64,000 nucleotides of DNA, taken from Abditibacterium sp. GTDB taxonomy: Bacteria > Armatimonadota > Abditibacteriia > Abditibacteriales > Abditibacteriaceae. The translations under genes and the position numbers were made by a program. The stretch is from NCBI GenBank assembly GCA_965260925.1, contig CBDHBZ010000008.1, positions 1,493,005-1,557,004 of the forward strand. Reading direction: 5' to 3'. The notes beneath the pieces are model-generated. The model was not told the origin of the DNA and made no database searches. It saw nothing but the letters and a program-made list of their open reading frames with translations. This document shows positions 1-63,492 of the stretch, in pieces. Position 1 is the stretch's first letter, and the number at the start of each line of letters is the position of its first letter.

Positions 1-1419
1 ACCGATAACTTTGCCGTCGGAACTGCGGCCCTTCTGGTCGAAGATGAAAATATCTTGCAGCAACAGCGTGTCGCCTTCCATGCCCTGCACTTCGGTGATG
101 TGCGTCACTTTGCGCGAGCCATCCGACAGGCGCGCCTGCTGCACGATGATGTTGATCGCCGACGAAATCTGTTTGGAAATCACGCGAATCGGCAAATCCA
201 AACCGCTCATCAAACACAAAGTCTCCAAACGAGAAATCGTGTCGCGCGGAGAGTTGGAGTGAACCGTTGACAAACTGCCTTCGTGACCGGTGTTCATCGC
301 TTGCAACATATCGAGCGTTTCGCCGCCGCGACACTCGCCGACGATGATGCGGTCGGGACGCATACGCAGCGCGTTTTTGACCAACTCGCGGATGGTCACT
401 TCGCCTTCGCCCTCGATGTTGGCCGGACGCGACTCCATGCGCACCAGATTGGGAATGTAGACCTGCAATTCGGCGGCGTCCTCGATGGTGACGACGCGCT
501 CGGTCTGCGGAATGAAGTTGCTGGTGATGTTGAGCGTGGTGGTTTTGCCCGAACCGGTGCCGCCCGCGATGATGCAGTTCATGCGCGCTTTGACGGCGGC
601 TTCCAAGAAAATGCGCATCGGCTCGGTCATCGAGCCGAACTCGACCAAGGCTTCGGCTTCCAATTTCTTCTGAAAAAATTTGCGGATGCTCATGCTCGGC
701 CCGTTGAGGGCCAGCGGCGGAATCACGATGTTGACGCGACTGCCGTCGGGCAAACGTCCGTCAACTAAGGGCGTGCGCGCGTTGGCGGTTTTGCCCAGCG
801 GCCTGACGATGCGGTCAACGATATTTAAAACGTGATCTTGATCAACGAATTTGCGCCGCGAGCGGCAGATTTTGCCTTTGCGCTCGATGAAAATATCGGT
901 CGGCGAGTTAACCATGATTTCCGAGATCGTCGGGTCGTTGAGCAGATACTGCATCGGGCCGAAACCCAAAACTTCGTTCAAGACTTCCTCGACCAAAACC
1001 GCTTTGCGCTTGGGCATCAACGGTTTCTCGTCTTTGAGCACGTCGTTCATCACCTGCGTGGCGACGGGCCGCAAACGGTCGCGGTCGTCGGCCTTGAACT
1101 GCTGGCCACCCAGTTCATCCACCAAAACCTCGTGGATTTTATGCGACAAACGCAACAGTTCGTCATCGAAATCGGTGTCGTCTTCGTCATCGGGCATGTG
1201 CATCTCGGCTTCGAGAAACGCCGCCAATCCGCCTTTTTTTTCTTCTTCCTCAGCGGGCGCCTCGGCCTCTTTGCCATTGCCGCCGACAACCGACTGCAAC
1301 CGCTCTTTAACCTCGCCGTTGCCGGAGGACGTGGCTGGTGTCGAGGCAGGGGGAGCCGCCACGCCGCCGCCGGACGCGCCGCCAAATCGTGAACGTGAAC
1401 CACCGGGAATTAATGCCAT
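1..1419 (-). CDS. cpaF: CpaF/TadA-type (VirB11-family) Tad/Flp pilus secretion ATPase; C-terminus lies beyond the window start
   Basis: Absent from the ORF track because it has no stop inside the window. Hand translation of the minus strand from ATG 1419 gives ...[19 protein letters not shown] (Walker A, about 540-570) and ...[48 protein letters not shown]..., the CpaF signature. The listed plus-strand ORFs here are antisense artefacts. Confidence 0.85.
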
Positions 1420-1687
1420 AGTAAAATCGCCTCCGCACCTTGGGCAATTCGTGGCGTGATGCGCCACAGAATGCCGAATGGTGTGAGGCACGCTTTTTAC
1501 CAATGGAATTTACGGAGATTGGGCGATTGGCTCCAATGTCACAGTTTCGAGGAGATATGCACAAATTTGGGCGATCTGAAGAGGATGATTCTTTGAGCCG
1601 CAAGAAGGCTAGCGAGAAAATCATTGTAAATGAGCGCGTCTTTACAGGTAACGCCCAAAATTTTCTAAGAAATTTAACAATTTGCCA

Positions 1688-1719
1688 TTGACAAGAAATG
1701 GGGGGGGGGGCGTTAATAT
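1688..1719 (+). promoter_or_regulatory. Candidate sigma70-like promoter with a G11 homopolymer in the spacer, upstream of the toxin gene
   Basis: TTGACA (1688-1693), a 20-nt spacer containing G11 (1700-1710), then TAATAT (1714-1719). It lies in an AT-rich intergenic region 55 nt upstream of ATG 1774. Confidence 0.35.
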
Positions 1720-1773
1720 ATTAAAGGAGAAAATTTACAGCTATTGCTGAGCCATTAATTATCTTCCATTCCC

Positions 1774-2051: not shown

Positions 2052-2117
2052 TATAAATATACTGTCTCTAATAATTACACTTTCAGCAACACTCATTACG
2101 TCAGTGTCACAAACGGA

Positions 2118-5132: not shown

Positions 5133-5143
5133 CGGAGAATACA

Positions 5144-6816: not shown

Positions 6817-6821
6817 TAAGC

Positions 6822-7178: not shown

Positions 7179-7190
7179 CATCAAACACCA

Positions 7191-7302
7191 GCCACGCTCG
7201 TGCTGCGACTGAAGAACGGCGAGCAAATCGAGACGACGCGCGAACATCCGTTCTACGTCGAAAGCCAGGGCTTTACTCCGGCGGGCGAAATGGGCATTGG
7301 CA
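7191..7302 (+). pseudogene. Third Hint-domain remnant (about 112 bp), a vestige of a further toxin cassette
   Basis: GCCACGCTCGTGCTGCGACTGAAGAACGGCGAGCAAATCGAGACGACGCGCGAACATCCGTTCTACGTCGAAAGCCAGGGC... matches 6109-6222 and 4424-4540 (LRLKNGEQIETTREHPFYVESQGFTPAGEMGIG). The similarity then ends. Confidence 0.7.
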
Positions 7303-7382: not shown

Positions 7383-7438
7383 CGACACCAGCCACGTCCT
7401 ACGGCAGTTTTTAGCATCGTGGGACGTGGCTGGTGTCG
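7383..7438. repeat. Dispersed palindromic element (CGACACCAGCCACGTCC hairpin)
   Basis: CGACACCAGCCACGTCC (7383-7399), a 22-nt loop, then GGACGTGGCTGGTGTCG (7422-7438). Confidence 0.9.
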
Positions 7439-10632: not shown

Positions 10633-12227
10633 GCCGTCACCGCCGCTTTCGCTTCGCTTTGCCCTGGAACGTGGCTGGTATCGGCGCCTGGAACGTGGCT
10701 GGTATCGGCGCCTGGAACGTGGCTGGTATCGGCGTCCGCGATGTGTTGCGGCAGCGAAAACCAGAAGGTCGCGCCTTCGCCGGGCACGCTTTCCACGCCG
10801 ATGGTGCCGCCGTGGCGCTCGACGATTTTTTTGCAAATCGCCAGGCCGATGCCGGTTCCGGGGAACTCGGTGCGCGTGTGCAAGCGCTGGAACATCACGA
10901 AAATGCGCTCGAAGTATTGGGCTTCGATGCCCAGACCGTTATCGCGCACGGAAAAAACGTGTTGCGGCGCTTCGCTCATCGCGGTTTTGCCGGCGGCATC
11001 GGGCGCGCTCAGAACGCGGCGCAGTTCGTAGCCAATGTGAACGAGGGGGTCGGTTTCGCCCCTGAATTTGAGCGCGTTGGAAACCAGATTCTGCAAGACC
11101 AACTCGATTTGTCCGGCATCGCCCCAAACGTCGGGCAAGGCGTCGCGCGCCACTTCCACGCCGGTCTCGCGGATGCGTTCGCTCAGATTGCGGAGCGCGT
11201 AATCGGCGGTTTTTTCCATCGAAACCGGCGCGAACTCTTTGCCGTGCGTGCCGACGCGCGAGTAGGCCAACAAATCGTTGATGAGGTTTTGCATGCGCTG
11301 GGCGCCATCAACGGCGTGTTCGATGAACTGGTCGGCGCGCGCGTCCAATTTGCCGCCGTAGCGTTTTTGCAAGACCTGGACGCAACCCGCCACGGCGCGC
11401 AATGGTTCTTGCAAATCGTGCGAGGCGACGTAGGCGAACTGCTCCAATTCGGCGTTGGAGCGTTGCAAATCTTGGACGGCGGATTCGAGTTTCTCTTCGG
11501 CGGCGCGGCGCTGTTCGTTTTCGGCTTCGACTTCGGCCTTGGCGCGCCGCAGTTCCACGTTGTTGCTTTCCAGATTCGATTGCGCCTGCGCGACCTGCGA
11601 AGCTGTGCGCGCGGCGAACAAGGCCAGTGCGCCCGTCAGCAGAATCGAGAACAGGCCGCCGCCCCACAAAATCGATTCAAAGGTGGCGCGCCGCTGTTTG
11701 ACCTGATCGGCGCGCGCCGTTAGCAGGATATCCTCCTGTTTTTCGACGCGCAGAATGACGCCACGCATTTCGTCCATCGCCATTTTGCGTTCGTTCGCGC
11801 GCAGGCTGGCGGTGGCGAGCGCCTCTTGCAGGTTTTGCGCGCCGCGCCGCCGCTCGATGGCCGGTTGCAACATGGTAGAGTTCCACTTTTGCTGCAAACG
11901 TTGCAGTTCGTCGAGGCGCACGATTTGTTCGGGCGATGTCGCCATCAAAACGCGCGTTTTGCCCATGTGCGTCTCGAAGTTGGCGCGGCCCGAATCGTAG
12001 GGATCGAGAAACGGGTCTTCGCCAGTGACCAAAAACCCGCGCACGCCGGTCTCCATGTTGAGTAGCGATTGCAAGAGCGCCTCGCTCTCGAAAAGCGTCT
12101 GGTAAGAGCGCGTGCTATAAGCGCTCGCCTGGCCGAGCAAACGGAAATTGTAGAGCGACAGCCCGACCAAAAAAAGCAGGAGCGCCAGCAACAATCCAAA
12201 GCTGCGGTAAAGGGATTGAGGATTCAT
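10629..12227 (-). CDS. CHASE3-type sensor histidine kinase with a C-terminal DTSHVPGA x3 tail
   Basis: N-terminal TM segment; LLNMETGVRGFLVTGEDPFLDPY (CHASE3-like); coiled coil; H-box ASHDLQEPLRAV; GTGIGLAICKKIVERHGG. The tail is encoded by the 3 x 24-bp repeat. Confidence 0.85.
   Translation of the reverse strand: MNPQSLYRSFGLLLALLLFLVGLSLYNFRLLGQASAYSTRSYQTLFESEALLQSLLNMETGVRGFLVTGEDPFLDPYDSGRANFETHMGKTRVLMATSPEQIVRLDELQRLQQKWNSTMLQPAIERRRGAQNLQEALATASLRANERKMAMDEMRGVILRVEKQEDILLTARADQVKQRRATFESILWGGGLFSILLTGALALFAARTASQVAQAQSNLESNNVELRRAKAEVEAENEQRRAAEEKLESAVQDLQRSNAELEQFAYVASHDLQEPLRAVAGCVQVLQKRYGGKLDARADQFIEHAVDGAQRMQNLINDLLAYSRVGTHGKEFAPVSMEKTADYALRNLSERIRETGVEVARDALPDVWGDAGQIELVLQNLVSNALKFRGETDPLVHIGYELRRVLSAPDAAGKTAMSEAPQHVFSVRDNGLGIEAQYFERIFVMFQRLHTRTEFPGTGIGLAICKKIVERHGGTIGVESVPGEGATFWFSLPQHIADADTSHVPGADTSHVPGADTSHVPGQSEAKAAVTA
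10664..10735. repeat. 3 x 24-bp tandem repeat derived from the dispersed CCAGCCACGT element
   Basis: CTGGAACGTGGCTGGTATCGGCGC repeated at 10664, 10688 and 10712 (last base of the third copy differs). Confidence 0.95.
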
Positions 12228-18118: not shown

Positions 18119-19423
18119 TTACCGTTGCACCGGCACGCGTTCGGTGCGCACGCTCTGCCACTTGATGCTATCGAGCGGCGAGCGTTTGATCGGAGCAGCC
18201 ACGGGCGCCGGGTTGACGACGGGCGTTACGTCGCGCAAAATCACTTCGCGCGAGGGCACGTCCAAACGCGGTAGCGCCGGTTGCGCCGTATTGCCGATCA
18301 GACTTGAGGCGCTATCGAGATAGCGCGGAGCAGCCACGTCCTGGGCATAAGCGCGCGCTTGGTCGGGCACGCGCTGCAGACGGTAATCGCCGTCGCCCTG
18401 GTTCCAGTTGAACCACGAAATCGCTTTGACGCGCGGGTAATTCTGGTTCAAAACCTGAAAGAAATTTTTGACCCACTCGACTTCGCCGGGAAAGCGCACG
18501 TTATATTTGTTCTTTTCGGGTGCCGTTGCCCATTCGGTAATGAAAAACGGTTTGCGCGCGGAAAACTGATTGTAAATCGTGTCGAGCGCGCGCGGATCGT
18601 TGCCCGAATAAAGCGAGACGCCGATCCAATCCACGCAATCGTCGCCCGGATAATAGCTTTGATACGGCACGCCGCCGACATCGGGCACGTTGGGCGACCA
18701 AACCCACGCCACGTTGTTGGCGCCGTTTTTGTTAAAAATATCGACGATACGTTTCCACGCCGCGACGTAATCCGCCGCCGTCGTCTGCGCGCCGGGGTAG
18801 GCTTGCGAATAGGGATACCAGTTGCCGTTCATTTCGTGATCGACCGAGATGAAAACCGGCCCGCCGAACTGTTTGATCGCCAGCGCCGATTGCTTGAAAT
18901 ACTCGTCCCAGGTGCCGTTGGCGATGAGCTTCAGTTCGGCGCTTTTGTGGGTTTGGTCGTAGGCGTAATCCTGCGTCGAAAACTTAATCAGCGAAACCGC
19001 GCCCAGCTTTTTGATGCGCGCCAGATTGGGCGCATAGTTCTGGCTCCAATTCGTCATGCGCCCGTTTTCGTAGGCCGAGGCGAACCAGGTCACGACCGAA
19101 ATCTTCTTGCCCGCCGCCGCGTTGTAATCGGAAATCTGGCGGCGCAAACCGTTCTCGTTCCACGCGTCGGGCAAAGACGCACCATGGTAAACGCCATCGC
19201 CCGCCGGCTCGAATTTAGCGCGCGTGCCGGTTGTCGCCCCGCGCGCGCCCATCGTTGCTCCACGCGCGGTTGCCATGGGCGCAACCGGCGCTACCGCGCC
19301 CAATGGGCGCACCGGCGGAATCGGCGGCGTGATGTTTTGGCCGTAGATTTTGATCTGCGCGTGAGCCGTTGCCGCGCTCAATATCAACGTTGCCGCCGCA
19401 AAAATCCCGTTTGTCCGCATCAT
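18119..19423 (-). CDS. Secreted glycoside hydrolase family 26-like (mannanase fold)
   Basis: Signal peptide MMRTNGIFAAATLILSAATAHAQ; VDHEMNGNWYPY; YYPGDDCVDWIGVSLY; FFITEWA. Confidence 0.7.
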   Translation of the reverse strand: MMRTNGIFAAATLILSAATAHAQIKIYGQNITPPIPPVRPLGAVAPVAPMATARGATMGARGATTGTRAKFEPAGDGVYHGASLPDAWNENGLRRQISDYNAAAGKKISVVTWFASAYENGRMTNWSQNYAPNLARIKKLGAVSLIKFSTQDYAYDQTHKSAELKLIANGTWDEYFKQSALAIKQFGGPVFISVDHEMNGNWYPYSQAYPGAQTTAADYVAAWKRIVDIFNKNGANNVAWVWSPNVPDVGGVPYQSYYPGDDCVDWIGVSLYSGNDPRALDTIYNQFSARKPFFITEWATAPEKNKYNVRFPGEVEWVKNFFQVLNQNYPRVKAISWFNWNQGDGDYRLQRVPDQARAYAQDVAAPRYLDSASSLIGNTAQPALPRLDVPSREVILRDVTPVVNPAPVAAPIKRSPLDSIKWQSVRTERVPVQR

Positions 19424-21120: not shown

Positions 21121-23103
21121 TCAACCTTCCAGCATTTCCTGGAATTCTGCTTCGGTCAAAACTTGAACGCCCAGCAGTTTGGCTTTGACCAATTTGCCGC
21201 CCGCTTTATCGCCCGCGACCAGATAATCCAAATTTTTCGAGACGCCGCTCGCCGCCTTGCCGCCACGTTGTTCGACCAAGCTCTGCGCCTGATCGCGCCC
21301 ATAAATCGTTAGAGTTCCGGTGAAACAGAACGATTTACCCGCGAACTGTTGCACGTCGAAACTCGCGCCCGCGCTTTTGCTTTTGGACGTGGCTGCTCTC
21401 AAACCCGTGACGCGCGCCGAAGCCAATGCCGTCGCCGACAGAATGTGGGCGCACGGGCCTTTCTTGAGTTTGTCGCGCCGAAAATCGGCGCACGAACACT
21501 GCGCGAACGGCACGCGCCCGTCGGCATCAACGTCAACCGTGACGTCGAACTTGGCCTGGTTGCGCGTCGAACCGCGCGCGTCAACCGTGGAAACCTGCGC
21601 TTCCAAACGCGTCAAACCGGCGCGCAAGCCGAAATCGTTGTCTTCGTCGGCCTCTTTCCACTTGACGCCGCCCGCCGCCACGATGCGCCGCGCCAACTCG
21701 ACTTTCGGGTCGCGTTGCCCCGCCAGCGCCTGCGCGCCCGGTGGCAACAATTTGCGCCAACGGTAAAACTCGCCGATCGGATCGAACATCGCGTCGCCAT
21801 CGCGGCAGATCTGCTGCAAAGCCGCCGTCGCCGTTTCGCGCGATAGATCCGAGCGCGCCGCGAGGGCTTGCGGCGTCAGTTTGAGCGCGCTTTCCAGTTG
21901 CCCGCGCGCCAGTTCGATGTCGCCCGCCGTGACCGGCGCCGTGGCTGCTAACAAGTCGAAGCGCGCCGCGCTCGACCAGTCGTTTTTCGTCCAACCGCTC
22001 AGCCCGACATCGAAGCGATGCCCGCCCGCTTCGACGCTCCAAAAGTGCGGCATTCCGCTGCCCAGCAAACGCACCTGGACGGTTTCCGAGTAAGCCAACA
22101 GCGACTCGATGGAAAACAAGCGGCGCCGTCCCCACACGCGAACGGTCGTTGATTCGCCCTGAAAAACGTGATGGTGTTCGGCGATTTCGATGTTCCACGG
22201 CTCCAGAACGATCTTCGGATTGGCGCCGTTTGCTAATTCAAAACGGATGGCGCGCGGCGATTCTTTCTCGCGGTCGCGGCGCAAAATCATCAACAGTTCG
22301 GCCACGGTCGAAGCGCTCAAAGTCAAATCGATGCCCGGCAGCGTCGAGGCCGATTGCACTTGCAAAAAGCCGCGCACCCAGGAGGGCGGCAAGTCGATCT
22401 TCTTTTCCAGACGCGCGCCCGCGTCGGTGCCGATGCTAACGCCGCCGCCTTCGACGCTCAGCCTTGCCGGACGATAAGAACGAACGCGCCGAATTTCGTC
22501 GGCCAAGGCCGCCGAGAAGTCCACGTTGGTGGTGCCAAACACGGTTTCGCCCTCGGTTTGCAAGTTGTCGGCGGCGACGGTGACGCGACCGTAAGAGCTT
22601 TCGTCCTGCGAAAAAACCTCGAAAATCGTGGCGTCGGGATGAACGGAAACGACCGGATCGAGGATGACCCACAACGCGAAATCGCGCGAGTAAAGCCATT
22701 TCCAGTAGCGCCGCTTGGCCTCCCACAATTGCGCCGAACCCAACTTGCTGCGGTGCGGCGCGGCTTCGTCGTTCAGCGATTTGAGTTGCGCGCGCAACGC
22801 TTCGCGCCGCGCGTTTTGCGCGGGCAATTCGTCGCGGCGCGCTGCCAGTTCGGGCGCCAGTTCGCGCATATATTCGCCGCGCACCCATTCCTGGTAGGCG
22901 CTGTGATCTTTGGCGGCGAAGCGCAAATCGGAGCCGACGACTTCAAATAAAGCCAGCATCGCGCGCGCGTAAGCGGGCGAGTTTTTGATCGTCGCGTGCA
23001 AACGCACGGCGGGGCGGCCCTGCTGCGCGGCGAGCGAAAACGCCATCGCGTCGCCGACATCAGCCACGCCGGAGGGCTTCGCGTAAGTTTGAGTGATCCA
23101 CAT
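21121..23103 (-). CDS. SWIM zinc-finger protein with a C-terminal BRCT domain
   Basis: SWIM CxC...CxH: FAQCSCADFRRDKLKKGPCAHILSA (about 21445-21510). BRCT resembling that of LigA: FAGKSFCFTGTLTIYGRDQAQSLVEQRGGKAASGVSKNLDYLVAGDKAGGKLVKAKLLGVQVLTEAEF (about 21124-21360). The start is set at ATG 23103 (MWITQTY). Confidence 0.75.
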   Translation of the reverse strand: MWITQTYAKPSGVADVGDAMAFSLAAQQGRPAVRLHATIKNSPAYARAMLALFEVVGSDLRFAAKDHSAYQEWVRGEYMRELAPELAARRDELPAQNARREALRAQLKSLNDEAAPHRSKLGSAQLWEAKRRYWKWLYSRDFALWVILDPVVSVHPDATIFEVFSQDESSYGRVTVAADNLQTEGETVFGTTNVDFSAALADEIRRVRSYRPARLSVEGGGVSIGTDAGARLEKKIDLPPSWVRGFLQVQSASTLPGIDLTLSASTVAELLMILRRDREKESPRAIRFELANGANPKIVLEPWNIEIAEHHHVFQGESTTVRVWGRRRLFSIESLLAYSETVQVRLLGSGMPHFWSVEAGGHRFDVGLSGWTKNDWSSAARFDLLAATAPVTAGDIELARGQLESALKLTPQALAARSDLSRETATAALQQICRDGDAMFDPIGEFYRWRKLLPPGAQALAGQRDPKVELARRIVAAGGVKWKEADEDNDFGLRAGLTRLEAQVSTVDARGSTRNQAKFDVTVDVDADGRVPFAQCSCADFRRDKLKKGPCAHILSATALASARVTGLRAATSKSKSAGASFDVQQFAGKSFCFTGTLTIYGRDQAQSLVEQRGGKAASGVSKNLDYLVAGDKAGGKLVKAKLLGVQVLTEAEFQEMLEG

Positions 23104-23147: not shown

Positions 23148-26100
23148 CTAAATTGCGCCGACCCCACTGACTTCTACGCCCGCGATTTCGCTTTCCAAAG
23201 CGCGCCGCGCCAACTGTTGCAGCGCCCATTCGGCGTCGCGCGGCGTTTTGCCGCGCGCCAACTCCAACAAAGTCGCGTCATCGGGCAAAGGCGCGCTTTG
23301 GCTACGACGCGTTTGCACCAAATTCTTGGCGCGCCGCGCCCGATTGCGCCCGCGCAAAACCGCGCGGTCGAACTCGATTGGCGCCGTTTCGGCATCACGC
23401 TCCAACAGCAAATTTGCCACGAAACCCTGCATTTCGGCGTTGGGATTCTCTTCCAATTTCGCCAACAAACCGTCGCCAATTAAATCATCCAAACGCGCGC
23501 CGACGAACTCGCGTCCATACTGGCGGGCGCGTAAACGCGGGCTGTCGCACAATGCCAGCGCCAGATTGGCAATGTTTTCCTCGCGCGACTCGAACCAAAC
23601 TTTCGCCGCGTCCATCGCGTCGCGCAAATCCGATTCGAGTAAGCGCAACGCGATCGGCACGGTCAAACCGCGCGCGACCAGACCGCTCAAACCGATCGCG
23701 CGCACGGCGGGTAACGGATGAATCGCGGCTTCGATCAAAGTTTCGGCGTCCAGTTCGCGCGCGCCCAGCCAGAGGGTAATCAGCGATTCGAGTGAGGGAT
23801 CGTCGAACTGCGTCACGTCGCTTTCCAGCATCCCAAAAGTCGCGGCGAACTCGGCATCGTCAATTAAACGCCCGCGCAAAAAACCGCCCGCAAACCCTTG
23901 CGAGCGCGCCGCTTCCCAGAACGCTTCGCGGCGGGCGGCGTCGGTTTTTAGCACTTGCAGAAGGGCGTCGCGCCACAACAGCCACACGGCTTCGGGCACA
24001 CTGGCGATAAGGCTCAGCAGCAACGCGGGCGCGAGTTGTCCGGCGGCCCCGGCGAAAGTCGCGGCGATAACGGGATCATCGAAGGTGCGCGCTCGCAACT
24101 GTTCGGCGCCCTCTTTTTTGGCGTCGAGATATTGCTGAACCGCGCCCCAAAACTGCGCGCCAATCGCCGGATGCGGCGCGATGGCGGCGACGAACCCGGT
24201 TTTCCATTCGCCCCAACGTGCATCGGTCAAATCGGCAATTGTTTTCACCGTCACTTCGGCGGGCAAAAACAGCGCGTAGGCGCCGAAAACTTCGCCCGGC
24301 ACGCCCGCGTTGGTGTAGTAGGCGCCCGCTTCGCTGCCCGCAAACTCGCCGCTCCAACGCGGGCGCACTTCGCGCCAATCCAACTCGCCGCGCACCAGAG
24401 CGGCGCGCGCATCGGCATCCGAAAGCGCGCTTTGCAGCGCATCCGAAATGCGCCAATTGACCGTGCGCGCGTTCCAATCGTAGCTTTGCGTCAGGCCGCG
24501 CAGCAAACTCAGCCAGACCGCGCCCAGCGTCGCGCTTTTGGTGCGCGATGCCGCCACCAACTGCCACGCCACAACGCGCGCCTCGCGCGATGGGGCGCGC
24601 ACGGCTTTGTCGATCTGTTCTTTATCGAAATCGGCGCGCGAGGCGCTTTCTAAGAGCGCTTCCAACACGGCGGCGTTGTTTAGAGCGAACGGAATCAGCG
24701 GCAAAACCTGCGCGGCGCTCAGGCGGCGACAAAACTGCGCGCCCAACGATTTGAGCGGCGCTTCGCTCGAATTCAGCAGCGCGCGCAACGCGGGCAACGC
24801 GCCGTCAGCGCGAAATTCGGGGTTCGACAAATCGAAGCGCGCCGCCAACAACAGCGCCAGTTCGCGCCCGCGCCGCGTCAGCGATTGAACCGTCATGCGG
24901 CGCCCAAATTTGTCGCGTTCAATCGGCAAGGATGCGCCCAGAAAATTCGCCAGTTCGCTGGCGATTGCGGGCGAAGGTTGGGCGCGCTCCAACAACGCGC
25001 GGCGCTTCAGCGGGTTCGACGCGGCGATGGCGCCCGCAACGGCGCGCGGCGAAAGCGCCGAAACGTCGCTTTCCAGAGCCGCGCGCGCGCCGATCACGCG
25101 CAGATCAGGCCAATTGGACGCGACGTAACTCTCGATTTGTGCCGCCGATAGCCGGGACGTGGCTGCTGTCGCCTGCCGCGCCAAATGCACGACGGGCGCC
25201 GTCACGCTATTTTCAACCAGCGAATTTAATTGCTCTGGATGCAAATTCCACGCGTCGGACGCGCGCTCGACGCGGCGCTTGACGACGAGCGATTTCGCGT
25301 TATAAAGATAGGCGCCGCGCCCGTGCGAAGCCTGATGCCAGTTCGGATGATTGGCGGCGACCAAATCGGCGGCGATCCAATTGTTGTCCCAGTCGAGATT
25401 GGGTTTATCGGCAATCTCCGCGAAAAACGCGCTCGCCAGAGCCGTGAATCCGTCGGCGTCGGATCGGGACAAATCGCGCAGCAAACGTCGCCCGCGCCGC
25501 TTCATATAAGCGAAAGTTTTCGGATCGGGCGCTTTGCCGATTTCCTGAATGGTTTTCGGATCGGAAACATCGAGCAAACGCAAGCCCGCGCGCGTGCCCA
25601 GATAAAGCGTGTCGCCCGCTAATGCCAGCGACGAAACTTCGTTGTAGCGCGCCGAACCGAAATCGTATTCGCCCGTAATCGACGGATTCTTGGGATTGGA
25701 CAGATCGAGCAAGCGGATTTTAGTGGCGAAACTGCCGCGATTCCAAGTCTGGCAAAAAACGGCGGCGCGATCCGCTTCGCACGCGAGGAAGCTCGCGCCT
25801 TCCACTTTTAGCTTGCCGATTTGACGCGGATTATCCAAATCGCTCAAATCGTAAGTAAATAATTCGTTGTTAGAAAAGCTCAACCAGAAGTCGCCGCACG
25901 GCTGCAAAACCGAGGCGTAATCGGTGGGCAACTTGCCCGCCAAACGCGGATTGGCCGCGTCCGATAAATCGGCGAAATTCAGTTCGTAAGTCGCGCCACG
26001 CCGCCCGTAATTATAGGTCATCGCCGCCGCGAAATTCGGCCCACCGATCAAACCGTAATAAGTTTGGACGAACTCGCCACTGCCGACCTCGATCAAACTT

Positions 26101-37645: not shown

Positions 37646-38116
37646 CTATAATTTTTCTCCGTCGTCTGGCCCGATTTCGCCTGGAACGTGGCTGCTGTCT
37701 CCGGCGTGCTGCGCGCGGACGCGCTCGATTTCGGCGCTCGCCAGCTTCTCGGCACTGCGCTCGAACTTCTCGCGCTGCAACTGCGCGCCTTTGAGCGTCA
37801 AATAGGCGTCGAACGCCGTAATAACGAGCGCGATAATCAGCAGAACCGTCGCGCCCGCCATGACCGCGATGAAACGGCGCCCGGTCGTGACATCGTTGAA
37901 ACTGCTGGGCCACAAAAGTATGGTGGCGTAGGCGAAACTGCCCAAAACCAAGACCCACAGCGCGCCGCCGACGATGCGCCAGCGCAGTTGGCGCGGCGAC
38001 AACACCGAATCGCCGCGCTTCATGCGCCCCCACTCGAAAAGCAGGCCCGCGATAATCGCGAACATTCCGGCGATGCAAAGCGCGCCGAAAACAAAGCGCA
38101 AAGTTGGAGCGGACAT
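37646..38116 (-). CDS. Small integral membrane protein, unknown function
   Basis: Four hydrophobic segments and a charged C-terminal tail containing SSHVPGE, encoded by a variant of the dispersed repeat. Confidence 0.5.
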   Translation of the reverse strand: MSAPTLRFVFGALCIAGMFAIIAGLLFEWGRMKRGDSVLSPRQLRWRIVGGALWVLVLGSFAYATILLWPSSFNDVTTGRRFIAVMAGATVLLIIALVITAFDAYLTLKGAQLQREKFERSAEKLASAEIERVRAQHAGDSSHVPGEIGPDDGEKL

Positions 38117-40943: not shown

Positions 40944-40987
40944 CGACACCAGCCACGTTCTGTGAGGTCGCAGGACGTGGCTGGTGT
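40944..40987. repeat. Dispersed palindromic element between convergent nadA and the kinase gene
   Basis: CGACACCAGCCACGTTC ... GGACGTGGCTGGTGT. Confidence 0.9.
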
Positions 40988-41002
40988 TCTTTGTTATTGC
41001 GC

Positions 41003-41690: not shown

Positions 41691-41766
41691 ACACCAGCCA
41701 CGTTCCGCGACACCAGCCACGTTCCGCGACACCAGCCACGTTCCGCGACACCAGCCACGTTCCGCG
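41691..41766. repeat. 4 x 19-bp perfect tandem repeat of the dispersed element half-site
   Basis: ACACCAGCCACGTTCCGCG at 41691, 41710, 41729 and 41748. Confidence 0.95.
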
Positions 41767-42893: not shown

Positions 42894-44063
42894 ATGAAAT
42901 CGTCGCCCGCCGCCCGCAATGCCGTAAATCACGCGTTTGTGCGGCGTTATCTGGGCGCGGCGCTGGCGCTGTTGGCGCTGGCGATCAGCGGTTTTGCGGC
43001 GGTGCGCTGGACGCATTTGTTGGGCGGCCGACCGCAGGCGATCGCCACGACCTCGGATACGCGAGCCTGGGCGTTGCTGGGGCGAGCATTGCACGCCAAC
43101 AGCGATGTGCCCTTCGCGGCGCACGTCGAAACCGTGGTTTTCGTGGGCGAGCGCAGCCTGCAAAGCGAAGCGCGCATCGTCAAAACGCCCGGCCATCTGG
43201 CGATCACCTATCTGTCCGGCCCGATGAAAGGCCAGAGCAGCGGATTCACCCGGCAACTGTTCTGGCGCCAGAACGCGGCAGGACAAATCGTGCCCTATGC
43301 GCAGACCGCGACCGCGCCCGCTCAGATCGCCAATCGCCGTTTCGAGTGGATGCGCGCCAATTATCAGGCCCAGATGCGCCCGGCCAGCGCAGTTGATGGG
43401 CGTCCGGTCGAAGTCGTGGAACTGCGCCCCGCGCGCGGCGCGCTCGCCGGGCCAGCGCGCCGCATTTTCATCGACGATGCCACCGGCTTAACTCTGCGCA
43501 TCGAAGAATTCAACGCGCGCCTTCAACCCGCTTCTCACTCGACGTTTTCCCGACTCGATCTGCACTCGGCCATCGCGCCAAACACGTTTCACGCGCCAGC
43601 GGCGCTGTTGAAGGCGGGCCAGCGGAGCTTCTGGCGCGGCGAAGAGTTGGGCGATGACGCGCGCGCCGTCGAGCGCAAAACGGGTTTGACGCCGCCGCAA
43701 AGCGGGCAAGTTCCGCGCGGCTGGAAGCGCGACGGATTCGGCGTGCATCGCTGCGTGCCAGGCGGCGGCGCGTTGCAGGTCGCGGCCTTCACGCGCTACA
43801 CCGACGGCCTCAACAGCCTGACGCTGTTCGCCATCAGACCGCCCGCCACCGCCAAAAATGCGCCGGACGCGCGCCGAGCGGTGCCCGCCAGTTGCAGTTT
43901 TGGGCCGGGCGCCCTGGTCTCGCGCGCCGATGGCGGCGGCACTCTGCTGGCCGTCGGCGATTTGCCGCCCGAAATCATGCGCCGCGCGTTGGAAGCCGCG
44001 CGCTTCCGGGCAGTCGCGCCGCTGGCTTCAACACCAGCCACGTCCCACGCGCCACCAGAATAG
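42894..44063 (+). CDS. Membrane-anchored periplasmic protein, possibly a MucB/RseB-like partner of the anti-sigma factor
   Basis: N-terminal TM segment LGAALALLALAISGFAAV. The family call rests only on position and a loose LolA/RseB-like pattern. The C-terminal STPATSHAPPE is encoded by a repeat half-site. Confidence 0.35.
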   Translation: MKSSPAARNAVNHAFVRRYLGAALALLALAISGFAAVRWTHLLGGRPQAIATTSDTRAWALLGRALHANSDVPFAAHVETVVFVGERSLQSEARIVKTPGHLAITYLSGPMKGQSSGFTRQLFWRQNAAGQIVPYAQTATAPAQIANRRFEWMRANYQAQMRPASAVDGRPVEVVELRPARGALAGPARRIFIDDATGLTLRIEEFNARLQPASHSTFSRLDLHSAIAPNTFHAPAALLKAGQRSFWRGEELGDDARAVERKTGLTPPQSGQVPRGWKRDGFGVHRCVPGGGALQVAAFTRYTDGLNSLTLFAIRPPATAKNAPDARRAVPASCSFGPGALVSRADGGGTLLAVGDLPPEIMRRALEAARFRAVAPLASTPATSHAPPE

Positions 44064-45642: not shown

Positions 45643-45696
45643 CGACACCAGCCACGTCCCACAACGTTTTTAAGCGCCGCAGGACGTGGCTGGTGT
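45643..45696. repeat. Dispersed palindromic element
   Basis: CGACACCAGCCACGTCC, a 22-nt loop, GGACGTGGCTGGTGT. Confidence 0.9.
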
Positions 45697-45904
45697 TCGC
45701 CAAACGAAACGGCGATTCTCACCAAAACGACGAACCCATTCATCACAATTCAACCGCGTCACTCCCGTTTAGAACGCGCTCAAAAATCGCACTTCGACCA
45801 TCGACAGCTTATGCGAATTGCCCCGATTCGCCAGTCGATCGCTCCTCTGGCCAAAAGCCCGTTTTAGAAGCCGCATTAAAAATTAAGGCGCCCGATAGTC
45901 GCGC

Positions 45905-48640: not shown

Positions 48641-48711
48641 GCGACACCAGCCACGTCTCACGGCGCAGTTGCACCAACCTCAACCGCGTCATAAGACGTG
48701 GCTGGTGTCGC
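48641..48711. repeat. Dispersed palindromic element (longer loop)
   Basis: GCGACACCAGCCACGTCT (48641-48658) ... AGACGTGGCTGGTGTCGC (48694-48711). Confidence 0.9.
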
Positions 48712-50087: not shown

Positions 50088-50804
50088 CTACACTCCGCGT
50101 TTGTTGCCCCACAACAGAACGTGCAGTTGCGGCGTGAGCGTTACGTCGAACCATTTCTCCCGCGCGCACCGTTCCAGCAACCATTCCAAGTGCCGGGTTA
50201 AAGCGGCGTTGTCGGCCTCGCGTCCGGTCATCACCGAATCGTTGCCGACCGACAGATAAAACGGCACAGCGGGATGCAGTTGGGAAACGCGGCGCGCGAA
50301 ACAAAAATCGGCTTCGTCGAAAACCACGATTTTAATCGAGATTTGCGTGTCGCGCGCGCCGACACCAGCCACGTCCAAACAGCGTTGCAGGCTCTCCTGC
50401 GAAAACTCCATGCCCGACGACGGCGGCTTGGGCGATAACACCAGATGATCCAGTTCGCCCAACCATTCGGGCGCGCGGCTCGCCTGCGTTTCCAGGGCGA
50501 AACTGTGCCCGCGCGCGTGCCCCAACTCCAGCAGTTCGCCCAGCGGTTGCAGCGCCGGGTTGCCGCCCGAAAGCGTGACGGTAATCGGCGCGTCGCCGCT
50601 CAAACGCTCGATCTCTTCTATAATAACGCGCGCCTCCATTTGGGTCCAATCGGCTTTGTGTTGCGGCAAAACCGCGTAAAGCGTATCACAAAAACTGCAG
50701 CGGAAATCGCAGCCGCCCGTGCGCACGAAAACCGTCGGGCGCCCGATGAGCGCGCCCTCGCCCTGAATCGTCGGGCCAAATATCTCGGAAACTAAAATCG
50801 ACAT
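50088..50804 (-). CDS. queE: 7-carboxy-7-deazaguanine synthase (radical SAM)
   Basis: SEIFGPTIQGEGALIGRPTVFVRTGGCDFRCSFCDT. Confidence 0.85.
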   Translation of the reverse strand: MSILVSEIFGPTIQGEGALIGRPTVFVRTGGCDFRCSFCDTLYAVLPQHKADWTQMEARVIIEEIERLSGDAPITVTLSGGNPALQPLGELLELGHARGHSFALETQASRAPEWLGELDHLVLSPKPPSSGMEFSQESLQRCLDVAGVGARDTQISIKIVVFDEADFCFARRVSQLHPAVPFYLSVGNDSVMTGREADNAALTRHLEWLLERCAREKWFDVTLTPQLHVLLWGNKRGV

Positions 50805-51595: not shown

Positions 51596-51641
51596 CGACA
51601 CCAGCCACGTTTGAAAACGCCGTAGGACGTGGCTGGTATCG
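51596..51641. repeat. Dispersed palindromic element
   Basis: CGACACCAGCCACGT ... GGACGTGGCTGGTATCG. Confidence 0.9.
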
Positions 51642-55588: not shown

Positions 55589-55622
55589 TTTTGGTAATGA
55601 TCTAACAGGGTAGTTTGCGCTG

Positions 55623-55673
55623 GACACCAGCCACGTCCCAGAGCAGTTTGCGTCGTAGGACGTGGCTGGTATC
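55623..55673. repeat. Dispersed palindromic element between convergent genes
   Basis: GACACCAGCCACGTCC ... GGACGTGGCTGGTATC. Confidence 0.9.
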
Positions 55674-55721
55674 GCTTGTTTTTCGCTGTAAAAGGGAATT
55701 TTTGCAGCAGAACTGACCCTA

Positions 55722-57032: not shown

Positions 57033-57085
57033 GAACACCAGCCACGTCCTACGGCATTTTGCGCCGTAGGACGTGGCTGGTGTTC
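57033..57085. repeat. Dispersed palindromic element (23-nt arms)
   Basis: GAACACCAGCCACGTCCTACGGC-ATTTTGC-GCCGTAGGACGTGGCTGGTGTTC. Confidence 0.9.
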
Positions 57086-57155
57086 GGGTCTGCCGCGCGA
57101 AAACCAAGCAGAGCGCACGCCGAGCCGTGATTTACAAATGGCAAAATTGCTAACT

Positions 57156-58655: not shown

Positions 58656-58744
58656 GGGTGATTGGGGCGGTTTGCGGCGAATTGGACGTTTTTCCCTCGC
58701 GCCCCATACCAGCCATGTCCTATGAGATAAATTCGCCGCAAACT

Positions 58745-61165: not shown

Positions 61166-61347
61166 CAGGATGCTCCTGGGCCAGCGCGAAATTGAACCCG
61201 CTTTAGTTTGGACGAAATCCGTTTCGCGCGTCAGAACGGAACGTGAAATACTGGCAATCCGCCCTGGTGCCAGGCGAGTTACCCCAAATTTGCCAAAACC
61301 GCAACCGCTCCGTCGCCTCGACGCTCAAATTGCGCCGCCTCTTCCTT

Positions 61348-63492
61348 ATGTTCAAGCTCTTGCCCCATCTTTTGCTGCTCGCGTTGCTCACAGTTTTCGC
61401 GCCCGCGCTGACGCCCATCGCGCGCGCGCAAAACACGCAACCCGCGCCCACAACGCCCGAAATTCGCGGCATCTGGGTTCACACATACAGCCCGCAAGAT
61501 TGGGATGTCGTGATGAAAAAGATCGCCGACGCCGGGCTGAACAGCGTTTTCGTGCGCGTGGCGCGCGGCGTCAACGCGCTCTATCCGTCGAAGATTTTGC
61601 CGATGGACGGCTGGGCCAATGACGCCTGGAACAACGGAGCGGGCCGCGACGAACTGAAGACGATGATTGAGGCCGCGCACCAAAACGGGCTGGAATTTCA
61701 CGCGTGGAAAGTCAACTTCAACGCCAGCGCCGGCATGCGCGCGGGAGAGGGGCCGGCGGCGATGTTTACGCAAATGAAGGCCGACGACCGCTTGATGCGC
61801 GACATGAACGGCGTGCAGGCGCCCGCGCTCAATCCGGGCGACCCGCGCAACCGCCAATTGGAAGTCGATGCGATGGCCGAACTCGTCCAAAATTACGACG
61901 TGGACGGCGTGCATTTCGACTACATTCGCTACACAGAAATCGGCGGCGACGGCAAGGAGAATTACGACTTCGATTACGGCGCGGTCTCGCGCTTCGAGTT
62001 CGAGAAGTCGCGCGGCATGAAGGTGGCGAACTGGCCCGCCGACGTGTTTTCGGGGCGCTTGAAAGCCGAATACGAAGACTGGGAGCGCGAAAATATCAAC
62101 GACGTGGTGCAGCGCGTCCATAAGGCGACCAAGGCGAGCAAGCCGCGCGTGATGGTTTCGGCGGCGGTGTGGCGCGCCAACCGCAAATATCGCGCGGGCA
62201 TCAAGCAAGATTGGACGCGTTGGGCGCGCGAAGGCTGGCTCGATTTCGTGGTGCCGATGGATTATAGCGCCGACATGGCGAGATTTGAGCGCGACATGAA
62301 AGAGCAGATTCCAAACGTGGCTGGTCACATTCCGTTCGCGGCCGGCATCGGGACGTATTTGCAGAAAGCGCCGGAAGACGTGAAAAAGCAGATCGAAATC
62401 GCGCGCCAAAACGGCGCCGACGGCTACGTTTTGTTCGCCTATAACGACGACAGTATAGAGGCGGTTTTGGCGCAGGTTAAGCTGGCGAACGGGATTAACG
62501 CCCAGGACGTGGCTGGTGTCGCCACGGCGTATCGCGCGCCGCGCGCGCATTGGAAAATTGGCGGCGGCATCGCGCGCAAGGACGAGCCGACGGCATTCGC
62601 GGCCGGTTCGACCGTAGAAGCGAGCGTCGCGTTTGCGCCCGGCGCGGCGAATTGGAAAAGCGGCAGAGCGCGCGTGAAATTGGAAGGTCTGGACGGTCAA
62701 CATCCGCTCGATTTGGGCGCCGATATCGATCTGTCCGACGCCGCGCCCCTGAGCGGCCCGGTGACGATTCCCCAGGGCCGCTGGCAACCGGTTTTGCGCG
62801 GTGAGGCGACCGACGCAAACGGCAAAGTTTGGCCGATTGCCGTGCGTGGCCCGCTCGTCGAAGGTTTAGATTCCGCCGCGATGTCCGCGCTCCAAGCGCG
62901 CGCTTTGCCGCCGCGTTTCGCGCGCGACACGCGCGCCGTCGCCGTTTACGCGGGCGGACAGGCGAGCGCGGGTCTGATGAAAGCCTTGAGAGACGCGCCG
63001 GGTGTGGACGCCCAACTGATCTACCAATTGCGCCCCGAAATGTGGAAGAGCGCCAAAGTTTTGATCGTGCCGCATCTGGAAGACGTGCAGGATTTGACGC
63101 CCGACGTCATCCGTGATTTGCGCCAATATGTCAGCAACGGCGGCAAACTGATTCTGACGCACGATGCCGTTGGTTATCGTTGGCATCAACGACTATTTCC
63201 CGAAATCGGCGTCGGCGTCGAACGGCTGGACGGCACAGAGATTACGGTCGGCGCCAACGATTACGGCATCACGGCGGGCGCGGTGACGCAAGGTTACGGC
63301 GACCACGTGATTATAGCGGGCGCGCCCGACGCGACAGTTTTGGCGCGCGAGGCGAAGTCGGACAAAGCCGTCGTTGTCACGGGCAGTTTCGGGCGCGGAA
63401 CCGTGATCATGGACGGCACGCTGTTGGGCGCGCCCTCGGACGGCGCAATGCCCGCGTCGGAGCGGAGGTTGCTGTGGGAGTTGGTGGGCTGA
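61348..63492 (+). CDS. Secreted glycoside-hydrolase-like family 10 (YngK/GHL10-like) protein with a C-terminal extension
   Basis: Signal peptide MFKLLPHLLLLALLTVFAPALTPIARAQ; IRGIWVHTYS...GLNSVFVRV...GLEFHAWKVNF...VDGVHFDYIRY. Confidence 0.6.
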   Translation: MFKLLPHLLLLALLTVFAPALTPIARAQNTQPAPTTPEIRGIWVHTYSPQDWDVVMKKIADAGLNSVFVRVARGVNALYPSKILPMDGWANDAWNNGAGRDELKTMIEAAHQNGLEFHAWKVNFNASAGMRAGEGPAAMFTQMKADDRLMRDMNGVQAPALNPGDPRNRQLEVDAMAELVQNYDVDGVHFDYIRYTEIGGDGKENYDFDYGAVSRFEFEKSRGMKVANWPADVFSGRLKAEYEDWERENINDVVQRVHKATKASKPRVMVSAAVWRANRKYRAGIKQDWTRWAREGWLDFVVPMDYSADMARFERDMKEQIPNVAGHIPFAAGIGTYLQKAPEDVKKQIEIARQNGADGYVLFAYNDDSIEAVLAQVKLANGINAQDVAGVATAYRAPRAHWKIGGGIARKDEPTAFAAGSTVEASVAFAPGAANWKSGRARVKLEGLDGQHPLDLGADIDLSDAAPLSGPVTIPQGRWQPVLRGEATDANGKVWPIAVRGPLVEGLDSAAMSALQARALPPRFARDTRAVAVYAGGQASAGLMKALRDAPGVDAQLIYQLRPEMWKSAKVLIVPHLEDVQDLTPDVIRDLRQYVSNGGKLILTHDAVGYRWHQRLFPEIGVGVERLDGTEITVGANDYGITAGAVTQGYGDHVIIAGAPDATVLAREAKSDKAVVVTGSFGRGTVIMDGTLLGAPSDGAMPASERRLLWELVG

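Follow-up and report, generated by a model that had tools for sequence, protein, structure and literature searches.

A family of short palindromic repeats with near-invariant arms behind genes in an Abditibacteriaceae chromosome

The 64-kb stretch of an Abditibacteriaceae chromosome analysed here (the window, part of a 3.17-Mb contig, to which all copy counts apply) carries ~35 copies of a 16-18-nt arm, GCGACACCAGCCACGTCC, mostly arranged back to back in pairs, giving hairpins downstream of genes. The motif is over-represented, its hairpins share a common ancestry, a fixed polarity and a characteristic placement, and it is present in two strains and absent from related species. The motif probably represents the arm of a young family of small palindromic repeats that is non-autonomous, confined to one species and similar to REPINs or MITEs.

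Abundance and distribution of the arm

An earlier note on this DNA had put a 10-mer at about 29 copies, far above the ~0.1 of a random sequence, and a recount agrees in number and position: CCAGCCACGT occurs exactly 29 times on the two strands against an expectation of 0.17 (dinucleotide shuffles, mean 0.17, maximum 2). With up to two mismatches the 15-mer ACACCAGCCACGTCC is found in 33 copies where 0.06 are expected, and over-representation in the window is ~170- to 500-fold. The information content of the aligned copies is restricted to ~17 nt, and the conserved unit is the unstructured 16-18-nt arm GCGACACCAGCCACGTCC, which on its own is not a palindrome (z = +0.6, ssDNA folding); GTAG adjoins it in just 5 of 14 arms.

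Beyond the pairs the inventory comprises ~14 single arms, which retain traces of a spacer (YNSGGCA), and two head-to-tail arrays (3 x 24 nt and 4 x 19 nt). The arrays had also been reported previously, and their units prove to be 100% identical (10663-10734 and 41691-41766). Variants with GCAGCCACGT had been placed at 21385, 25154, 32962/33000 and 37683; they are seen at 21385, 25155, 32959/33000 and 37684, with one more at 18327. The arrays and single copies are as follows.

10663..10734, minus strand: array of 3 x 24 nt, encoding (ADTSHVPG)x3, the C-terminal tail of a histidine-kinase ORF
41691..41766, plus strand: array of 4 x 19 nt, ACACCAGCCACGTTCCGCG, with no inter-unit spacer and no secondary structure, in a divergent intergenic region
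1325..1341, minus strand: single perfect arm, probably at the 5' edge of a tadA/cpaF gene
7185..7199, plus strand: single arm with 2 mismatches, 7 nt past a stop codon
13974..13990, plus strand: single arm that follows the plsC stop codon and precedes a canonical bidirectional terminator
18327..18341, plus strand: weak copy of the GCAGCC subfamily with 3 mismatches, inside a GH26-like gene
21385..21399, minus strand: single arm of the GCAGCC subfamily with 2 mismatches, immediately preceding the BRCT domain of ORF 21121-23229
25155..25169, minus strand: single arm of the GCAGCC subfamily with 1 mismatch, inside a 1178-aa ORF, read as TAATS
26407..26421, plus strand: single arm with 2 mismatches, antisense in the 1178-aa ORF
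37684..37698, minus strand: single arm with 2 mismatches, ~30 nt upstream of the likely ribD start
44029..44045, plus strand: single perfect arm within the final 10 codons of ORF 42768-44063
50360..50376, plus strand: single perfect 17-mer inside a radical-SAM gene, antisense, read as DVAGV
58706..58720, plus strand: single arm in decay between tandem genes, with 2 mismatches here and 1 at the corresponding site of strain L157
61098..61112, plus strand: weak copy with 3 mismatches and an exact 10-mer core, near the 5' end of a wzz-like gene; also in L157
62315..62324, minus strand: core 10-mer only, over a conserved NVAG peptide, differing from orthologs at synonymous sites only
62505..62521, minus strand: single perfect arm inside a GHL10 gene, in a net +18-nt (6-aa) in-frame insertion

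The motif is largely extragenic, with ~4 copies in 50 kb of confirmed CDS versus ~29 in ~14 kb of non-coding or edge sequence, and ~12% of copies are inside genes. Of the copies that had been described as lying within CDSs, ~4 are indeed in confirmed interiors, whereas several are at ORF edges (1327, 37684, 44031, 61098 and the histidine-kinase-tail array). Those in genes favour two reading frames, TPATS and DVAGV, and there is no excess of near-misses in coding DNA, where sequences with 3, 4 and 5 mismatches number 3, 10 and 46 against 1.3, 8.2 and 49 expected from synonymous-codon shuffles.

Hairpins and their common descent

Seven clean inverted pairs are present, with arms starting at 7385/7422, 40946/40973, 45645/45682, 48644/48694, 51598/51625, 55624/55658 and 57035/57069, together with one degenerate pair at 32959/33000. 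The earlier note had spoken of nine inverted-pair loci; the total is not nine, and the locus it had included as a half-site next to a terminator (13974-13990) is a single arm that does adjoin a terminator and has no partner. The hairpins are listed below, none being assigned a strand.

7383..7438: hairpin between convergent hypothetical and histidine-kinase genes; -28.1 kcal/mol, z = -7.5
32957..33016: degenerate pair of the GCAGCC subfamily within the long ORF 32554-33885; z = -3.4
40944..40989: hairpin with a short spacer directly behind the nadA stop codon, a position taken by an ordinary terminator in relatives
45643..45698: hairpin in the priA-ftsQ intergenic region
48641..48711: hairpin upstream of priA, right behind a conserved intrinsic terminator; its spacer is longer
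51596..51641: hairpin with a short spacer in a tandem intergenic region
55622..55674: hairpin between convergent methyltransferase and GT4 genes
57033..57085: hairpin nearest to the inferred master; both arms are perfect, and the 22-bp stem, paired throughout, closes on the loop ATTTTGC; -32.3 kcal/mol as ssDNA, z = -11.1

Folding gives the hairpins stabilities of -17 to -32 kcal/mol (z = -3.4 to -11), whereas no structure is seen in a single arm or in an array. In all 8 pairs the polarity is the same, with the GTCC ends pointing toward the loop, and the distance between arm starts is 27-50 nt. All eight align, over both arms and spacer, to one palindromic consensus of ~53 nt, from which a master element GCGACACCAGCCACGTCC-TACGGCATTTTGCGCCGTA-GGACGTGGCTGGTGTCGC of that length can be inferred. 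From a hand count on the alignments the arms diverge at ~5% of positions versus ~30-45% for the spacers, and the two arms of one pair diverge without compensation. The common spacer indicates that the hairpins descend from one element and were copied as units rather than having arisen in place. Outer inverted flanks that are specific to the locus are found at 51585-51652 and 57015-57103. The window also holds at least three other hairpin families, including a REP-like one built of GTAG plus a palindrome.

Every clean hairpin (7/7) is downstream of a gene; three are in convergent intergenic regions, as had been noted for several, the other four are in tandem ones, and none is found in the 8 divergent regions. 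The copy nearest to the master is 73 nt downstream of a 499-aa ORF (57156-58655) with weak NCBIfam matches to Wzy-like repeat-unit polymerases. The stems are not followed by the T-run of an intrinsic terminator, only 40945-40988 passing a lax scan with a weak tail, and canonical terminators stand separately beside the copies at 13976 and 48641.

Comparison with a second strain and with related species

The comparison with related genomes that had been proposed earlier finds the motif in a second strain and no canonical copy in other relatives. In strain L157 (~98% nucleotide identity) all eight copies within its 12.8-kb contig are kept at the same sites: the hairpin at 57033..57085 is conserved at 5793/5827, that at 51596..51641 is identical at 1361/1388, and the radical-SAM copy at 50360..50376 is conserved. 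No copy has been gained or lost between the window and L157, with the exception of the hairpin at 55622..55674, which is within a 1-kb segment (54711-55751) missing from L157. By contrast, no canonical copy is present in the nine syntenic loci compared from other Abditibacteriaceae relatives (~188 kb in all; PriA 85-95% amino acid identity).

At several sites relatives lack the element. The priA-ftsQ intergenic region is 401 nt in the window versus 154 nt in L002, which has no hairpin there, as is also the case for L158, and both the hyp428-priA and priA-ftsQ spacers are far longer in the window than in element-free relatives. The GT4 gene and the 499-aa ORF abut in L151, without a hairpin, versus a gap of 183 nt with the hairpin between them in the window. 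In the GHL10 gene the insert is missing from 16 of 16 distinct orthologs aligned and present in the strain protein P0361, although the boundaries of the event are ambiguous (36 nt replace 18). Judged from these alignments, the longer spacers, the gap before the 499-aa ORF and the net +18 nt in GHL10 look like insertion. At the site orthologous to the hairpin 48641..48711, L158 has one lone AACACCAGCCACGCCG, possibly a proto-copy of the motif, and L003 has a hairpin of a different family; in other species, too, different hairpin families occupy equivalent intergenic sites.

The radical-SAM copy is of another kind. The gene is equal in length to its L002 ortholog, and the site matches the motif at 17 of 17 positions in the window versus 11 of 17 in L149 with no indel, i.e. 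six substitutions in 17 nt, all of them toward the motif, which looks like short-patch conversion and not transposition. The nucleotide-kinase gene that adjoins the array at 41691..41766 is missing at that site in all four relatives compared. IS elements in the relatives L151 and L155 bear no relation to the motif.

Origin of the family and likeness to known systems

If the motif is, as we think probable, the arm of a mobile palindromic repeat, the replicating unit would be the ~53-nt hairpin element, which in one Abditibacteriaceae species would have multiplied into the intergenic DNA that follows genes. The spacers would have decayed later whilst the 16-18-nt arms stayed near invariant; an enzyme that moves or maintains the element presumably recognises these arms. 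Solitary arms would then be remnants of elements, the two arrays local tandem duplications of an arm, and a few arms would have come to lie in frame where genes tolerate them. Mobility would be provided in trans by an enzyme encoded outside the window, for which a RAYT-type Y1 transposase is the leading candidate, a DDE transposase also being possible. Among ~68 window ORFs scanned there is no RAYT/Y1 transposase, DDE transposase or GIY-YIG gene. Measured against MITEs, TIR-like arms are present, and manual inspection found no consistent direct repeat in the flanks and no evident target-site duplication. Rfam gave no match at gathering thresholds, the sub-threshold matches to miRNA hairpins being meaningless.

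Several observations weigh against a mobile repeat. The far better conservation of arms than spacers implies that selection or homogenisation acted once copies had inserted, an outcome not predicted by simple selfish spread, and the radical-SAM copy, with no change in length, stays odd. There is also no evident target-site duplication, no transposase among the window ORFs scanned and no turnover of copies between strains outside the 1-kb indel. REPIN-RAYT systems are described as long-lived and vertically inherited, unlike the present family, which is missing from congeners at 85-90% protein identity.

The invariance of the arms beside decaying spacers would also fit if the arms were sites selected by the host, bound by a host DNA- or RNA-binding protein, or if the hairpins were transcript-end structures (terminators or 3' mRNA stabilisers), kept in place with no transposase. 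Protein-binding sites are typically asymmetric, unstructured units that occur singly, in inverted pairs and in direct arrays, as here, the hairpins are all downstream of genes with one replacing the ordinary nadA terminator of relatives, and copies are stable between strains. Nevertheless this seems unlikely: the common spacer points to hairpins copied as units, paired arms diverge without compensation, close relatives do without the motif at the same sites, and the stems lack a T-run, except weakly at 40945-40988, with separate canonical terminators beside several copies. It is more doubtful still that the arm is written and maintained in the chromosome by a sequence-specific DNA-processing system, whether by short-patch conversion with head-to-tail addition or by uptake-biased recombination. 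Either route would account for arms that are invariant beside decaying spacers, for the in-gene replacement of unchanged length and for arrays with no spacer, and if true such a system would be the first in Abditibacteriota.

Taken by itself the first route, in which the primary mobile unit is the ~18-nt arm, spread by templated short-patch conversion or by insertion on the scale of an oligonucleotide, either at sites of partial similarity or head-to-tail, with hairpins secondary through inverted duplication, appears improbable. It would account for the radical-SAM site going from 11/17 to 17/17 without an indel, for a net gain in GHL10 equal to the arm length, for the spacer-less 19-nt array, for the lone arm-like sequence in L158 where the window has a full hairpin, and for the outer locus-specific inverted flanks. 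However, only two in-gene events are informative, one of them with the ambiguous GHL10 boundaries, the shared spacer indicates that the hairpin was copied whole, the spacer traces (YNSGGCA) in single arms were kept, and the arrays are explained by slippage. We know of no candidate enzyme for this route, and the retron-type RT encoded in the window has no link to the motif.

Slightly less credence again is given to a DNA-uptake-type signal, a 16-mer bound by a putative competence pilus receptor and accumulated through biased uptake and recombination. The earlier note had seen a resemblance to neisserial DUS and Pasteurellaceae USS, and it is true that the motif occurs in both orientations, as inverted pairs at gene ends and as singles in genes with two preferred reading frames (TPATS and DVAGV), at a density of ~0.5 per kb that is similar to DUS/USS densities; furthermore the radical-SAM copy and the core at 62315 arose via substitutions toward the motif, and genes for Tad and type IV pili are present in the clade. 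The suggestion is poorly supported, given the absence of the motif from ~188 kb of syntenic DNA of other species of the family, the ~12% of copies inside genes, the lack of 3-5-mismatch intermediates in coding DNA above synonymous-codon shuffles, and the descent of the hairpins, spacer included, from one master element. The polarity fixed in all pairs and the several other hairpin families in the same niche argue in the same direction. DUS are described as common to the related species of a family in dialect forms (PMC3630211), unlike this motif.

Of the known systems the REPINs of the REP-RAYT type in Pseudomonas and Enterobacteria are similar in architecture: extragenic doublets of invariant 16-mers, inverted about a spacer of lower conservation, form hairpins and are accompanied by singlets and tandem clusters (PMC3116915). 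The earlier assignment to a REP/RAYT-type element therefore stands for the inverted doublets, singlets, clusters and extragenic location, though not for the arm alone, which is no palindrome (z = +0.6), whereas the classical REP unit is an imperfect palindrome with a conserved 5' GTAG (here 5/14). As in REPINs, doublets predominate (8 of them against ~14 singlet loci, fewer than two singlets per doublet), singlets have the appearance of remnants, over-representation is hundreds-fold and several families share one genome. The present family differs in the 27-50 nt between arm starts, versus 71 or more, in spacer complementarity that is not kept, in the few copies in frame inside genes, in having no RAYT gene within the 64-kb window and in being missing from congeners, so that vertical persistence across related species is not seen.

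NTS/SRM is likewise a hairpin repeat of hundreds of copies clustering around genes, with a dedicated sequence-specific partner, the GIY-YIG ssDNA nuclease Ssn, encoded once per genome; the NTS, CGTCATTCCCGCG...GCGGGAATC, is however itself a hairpin and its sequence is unrelated to the arm (PMC11893778). The scan of window ORFs revealed no GIY-YIG domain. Like DUS/USS, the motif has a short core that is asymmetric, occurs in either orientation at ~0.5 per kb, is paired in inverted form at gene ends and single in genes, and shows a reading-frame bias; it differs in its longer conserved block (16-18 nt), its mostly extragenic and species-restricted occurrence, the spacer shared by common descent and the lack of a near-miss excess. 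Rickettsia palindromic elements (RPE), of ~100-150 bp and frequently intragenic, form a family of palindromic repeats able to lie in frame within genes, where they add a peptide that is tolerated; in the present case genes contain short single arms only, and most copies are intergenic. Whilst TIR-type MITEs such as Correia/NEMIS differ from the present elements, which are much smaller (45-70 nt) and for which no target-site duplication or parent IS was found, the two have in common terminal inverted repeats, a short interior, an intergenic location, a species-restricted expansion and solo ends.

Anatomy of the motif and its hairpins

The motif had been described in an earlier note as massively over-represented in the window, and this is borne out by 29 occurrences of CCAGCCACGT, where dinucleotide-preserving shuffles average 0.17 and never exceed 2; ACACCAGCCACGTCC, allowing up to two mismatches, is found 33 times in the 64 kb where 0.06 copies are expected. 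All motif coordinates in that note were verified on re-scanning the window, with copies spanning 1327 to 62519, and from 14 to 40 kb the motif occurs only as a variant subfamily (ACAGCAGCCACGTCC). The window, part of a contig of 3,170,584 bp, has a G+C content of ~59% and carries ordinary chromosomal genes (priA, ftsQ-like, lpxD, ribD, nadA, corA and moeB) as well as a polysaccharide gene cluster and several histidine kinases; searches of it for tRNA or Rfam matches found none. The best protein matches are labelled Abditibacteriaceae or Abditibacteriota, with the CorA of Abditibacterium utsteinense being only 61% identical to that of the window.

Alignment of 28 independent copies limits the information content to ~17 nt, (G)CGACACCAGCCACGTCC, followed by a weak YAsGGC tail, with no signal on the upstream side. 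Neither single arms (z = +0.6) nor arrays (z = +0.9) are structured when folded, whereas inverted pairs of arms form stable hairpins as single-stranded DNA, with energies of -17 to -32 kcal/mol and z of -3.4 to -11. Such pairs had been reported at nine loci; the pairs exist, but they number seven clean hairpins and one degenerate pair. Polarity is uniform across all eight, with the copy on the + strand leading and the GTCC ends pointing toward the loop, and arm-start spacings in the clean hairpins are 27, 27, 34, 34, 37, 37 and 50 nt. The copies have the spacer in common as well as the arms, giving the consensus CGCGCGACACCAGCCACGTCCTACGGC..TTTT..GCGTCGTAGGACGTGGCTGGTGTC, of which the hairpin at 57033-57085 is a perfect version with a 22-bp stem. 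By hand count ~5% of arm positions and ~30-45% of spacer positions diverge from the consensus, and that arms are so much better conserved than spacers in the same copies points to selection or homogenisation acting on the arm. Changes in one arm of a pair are not compensated in the other (as in ACACC against ATACC), and no target-site duplication is visible at the copies. Arms are also found in two head-to-tail arrays, the first of which sits in the C-terminal tail of a histidine kinase, past the HATPase domain.

Head-to-tail arrays of the motif in the window
10663-10734: 3 x 24 nt, perfect repeat, encoding (ADTSHVPG)x3
41691-41766: 4 x 19 nt, perfect repeat, with no spacer between units

Placement and origin of the copies

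On a curated gene map of the window the seven clean hairpins occupy 3 of 7 convergent, 4 of 19 tandem and 0 of 8 divergent intergenic regions, so the statement that several lie between convergent genes holds for three of the seven hairpins. Divergent regions make up 38% of intergenic bases, yet contain no clean hairpin (p ~0.03, an estimate from proportions). The hairpins were considered as canonical terminators and rejected as such, no T-run following their stems; real terminators adjoin some of the copies. A few copies do lie inside coding sequences as previously noted, but many of those so described sit at ORF edges, and 50 kb of conservatively trimmed coding sequence contains two perfect 16-mers, one copy with one mismatch and one with two. 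Copies in coding sequence at 3, 4 and 5 mismatches number 3, 10 and 46, against 1.3, 8.2 and 49 in synonymous-codon shuffles, and as these counts are at the shuffled level a general drift of coding DNA toward the motif finds no support. In-gene copies are read in two frames, ACA CCA GCC ACG TCC (TPATS) and GAC GTG GCT GGT GTC (DVAGV), and single copies have no strand bias relative to transcription (10 sense and 7 antisense by our own tally).

Syntenic DNA of relatives was obtained through protein look-ups and comprises nine Abditibacteriaceae loci (L002, L003, L149, of which L150 is a duplicate, L151, L152, L154, L155, L156 and L158) totalling ~188 kb, in which PriA is 85-95% identical to that of the window at the amino acid level and genes are ~80-88% identical in nucleotides. 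The comparison with related genomes that the earlier note had proposed as a check shows the canonical motif in none of the nine loci. Copies are shared with L157, a 12.8-kb contig of a second strain of the same species that is 97.5-98.5% identical in nucleotides to window positions 50238-64000. None of the orthologous sites (50362, 51598/51625, 57035/57069, 58706, 61098 and 62505) lacks the motif in L157, and the sole copy-bearing difference is a 1-kb indel at 54711-55751, where a class-I methyltransferase gene and the hairpin 55624-55672 in the window correspond to 46 unrelated bases in L157 (4464-4510). In the closest other lineage, L158 (PriA 94.6% identical in amino acids), the counterpart of the hairpin site 48641-48711 has a lone AACACCAGCCACGCCG with no inverted partner, directly after the same conserved terminator; it is possibly a proto-copy, or else one that has decayed. 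L158 also carries ACAGCAGCCACGTCG twice in coding sequence. The family is fixed within one species and absent from its congeners, its expansion being apparently recent.

Intergenic regions that bear hairpins are longer than those of relatives, for example 401 nt against 154 nt between priA and ftsQ, and a gap of 183 nt separates the GT4 gene from a 499-aa ORF (57156-58655) in the window, whereas the two abut in L151. The same intergenic sites in other species hold different hairpin families, and 3' of nadA the window has a motif hairpin where relatives have an ordinary terminator. Insertion of the motif into the loop of an ancestral nadA terminator was considered and is not claimed because the alignment is ambiguous. 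After nadA there follows a segment (41003-41835) made up of a nucleoside/nucleotide-kinase gene and the region upstream of it, with the motif hairpin as its boundary on one side and the 4x array on the other; the four relatives compared (L152-L155) all lack it between nadA and the next gene. The array and its adjacent P-loop gene were rejected as a partition system, the gene being a nucleoside/nucleotide kinase.

In the GHL10 gene a perfect arm lies within a net +18-nt in-frame insertion, encoding GINAQDVAGVAT against AAAAVP or VFPAIP, that is absent from all 16 distinct aligned orthologs and present in the second strain. The arm in a radical-SAM gene involves no change of length relative to its ortholog in L149, where GGAAGTCGCGCGCGGCG matches the motif at 11 of 17 positions and GGACGTGGCTGGTGTCG of the window at 17 of 17; the six substitutions are all toward the motif, with a background divergence of ~19%, and this copy looks like a short-patch conversion. 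The codons GTG GCT GGT at 62315 encode a conserved NVAG peptide and differ from L151 at three synonymous positions, again all toward the motif.

Nature of the element

Published REPINs consist of two inverted invariant 16-mers around a less conserved spacer; singlets are their remnants, and tandem clusters of ordered units also occur (PMC3116915). The motif family is like them in that its hairpins go back to one master, polarity is fixed, copies are placed outside genes on the 3' side, and both singlets and tandem clusters exist. We consider that the motif is probably one arm of a REPIN/MITE-like hairpin element that is young, species-specific and non-autonomous, for which we infer both mobility and an enzyme; none of the ~68 ORFs of the window encodes a Y1/RAYT, DDE or GIY-YIG protein. 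The earlier reading as a REP/RAYT-type element is retained for the REPIN-like architecture and 3' placement, but not as a classical REP since an arm taken alone is not palindromic. REPIN-RAYT systems are described as long-lived, whereas the present family is missing from congeners. A tie to the retron-type reverse transcriptase gene (19652-21070) was considered and rejected, as the variant copy close to it belongs to the coding region of a BRCT domain and not to a non-coding RNA.

The non-palindromic arm, the lack of target-site duplications, the conservation of the arm, the radical-SAM copy and the absence from congeners keep three rival explanations in play. That arms and hairpins are binding or structural sites selected by the host is unlikely, if worth bearing in mind, and spread of the motif by conversion at the scale of the arm, which the radical-SAM copy resembles, is distinctly improbable. 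The weakest rival, and very improbable indeed, is the uptake signal of the DUS type that had been offered as an alternative: the motif is absent from relatives, few of its copies are coding, an excess of near-misses is lacking and the hairpins have spacers in common, and on present evidence it is not an uptake signal.

Beyond the window, a gapped scan of genome contigs for the hairpin pattern gave, among the matches listed, one locus (L001), an isolated single hairpin at 530-605 of the Pseudonocardiaceae MAG contig JBOHGE010000004.1 (70% GC). Over 18 nt its arm is identical to the unit of the window array (the pattern demanded only 12), its polarity is the same, and it is embedded in an outer palindrome, TTGTGAAC...GTTCACAA, which we take to resemble a Rex-type operator split in two. 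This hairpin may have arisen by chance among the many palindromes in 596 Gbp, or may be the same element elsewhere. Metagenome contigs searched with a 17-mer and viral contigs with a 16-mer gave single matches only, mostly in high-GC contigs and with no enriched locus, in a number that fits the chance estimate from collection size. A plasmid BLAST search with the hairpin consensus matched only at E of at least 1, inside unrelated genes, Rfam returned nothing for the motif, and a full-text literature search for the motif string or for Abditibacteriota repeats found no description.

The repeats built on the motif are a new REPIN/MITE-like family, atypical in some features, in the barely studied phylum Abditibacteriota (formerly candidate division FBP), and offer a clean, apparently recent case of hairpin repeats expanding. 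As the family is fixed in the species, absent from congeners and possibly represented by a proto-copy in one relative, it would be a good system in which to study the birth of a REPIN-like population and the enzyme that drives it. Conservation of the arm despite decay of the spacer, together with in-frame arms in a few genes, is unusual for REPs and hints at a sequence-specific partner protein. The 16-mer is usable as a species-specific marker, and the hairpins are a likely cause of assembly breaks and strain-level rearrangements.

Other repeats and neighbouring regions

The window contains several further hairpin families, and this genome is therefore a habitat for such elements.

Further hairpin families
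8761-8854, 51724-51811, 53760-53838 and also 27211-27296: second family, inverted doublets of GTTCGTAGTAGCGyCGCAAGrCGCGT
19502-19615, 27470-27591, 26919-27004: third family, 37-51-nt arms with GCCCTCTTCCAATCGG; also in L003 (9819-9915 and 16018-16132)
17993-18110: fourth family (GTAGAGACACCGATTTATCG; GTAGAGACACCGATTTATCGTGTCTAAAAC); also in L149 (5398-5493), L156 (18460-18558) and L157 (12254-12350)

The GTAGAGACACCGATTTATCGTGTCTAAAAC family is found at different sites in several species, and the second family, GTAG plus a short palindrome with the look of a classical REP/REPIN, is common to the window and L151 (19075-19160). Long near-perfect inverted repeats unrelated in sequence to the motif are present at 39357-39509, 38167-38318, 35798-35876 and 1952-2053, the first of these lying between corA and nadA and having 41-nt arms with 100% complementarity. 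Immediately 3' of the GHL10 gene, positions 63520-63840 consist of 29.2 perfect tandem copies (100% identity) of the 11-nt unit CGGAGAGAACG. The array is missing from L157, where a copy of the 17993-18110 hairpin family stands instead.

Positions 1-7400 have a lower GC content (0.52-0.53) and encode a 1004-aa intein-N/Hint protein, an ankyrin-repeat protein and a second Hint fragment; the region resembles a polymorphic-toxin island and may have been horizontally acquired. The region 19652-26684 has the look of a defence island: in it the retron-type reverse transcriptase (best NCBIfam match the St85 family, 204 bits, under the cut-off of 235) adjoins two ORFs, one of 702 aa with BRCT as its C-terminal domain and one of 1178 aa that matches no family. 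Finally, a hypothetical gene upstream of priA contains coding repeats of 18/21 nt that specify NGxMMN-type peptides (48796-48949 in the window and 8903-9842 in L002), and these are kept in relatives.
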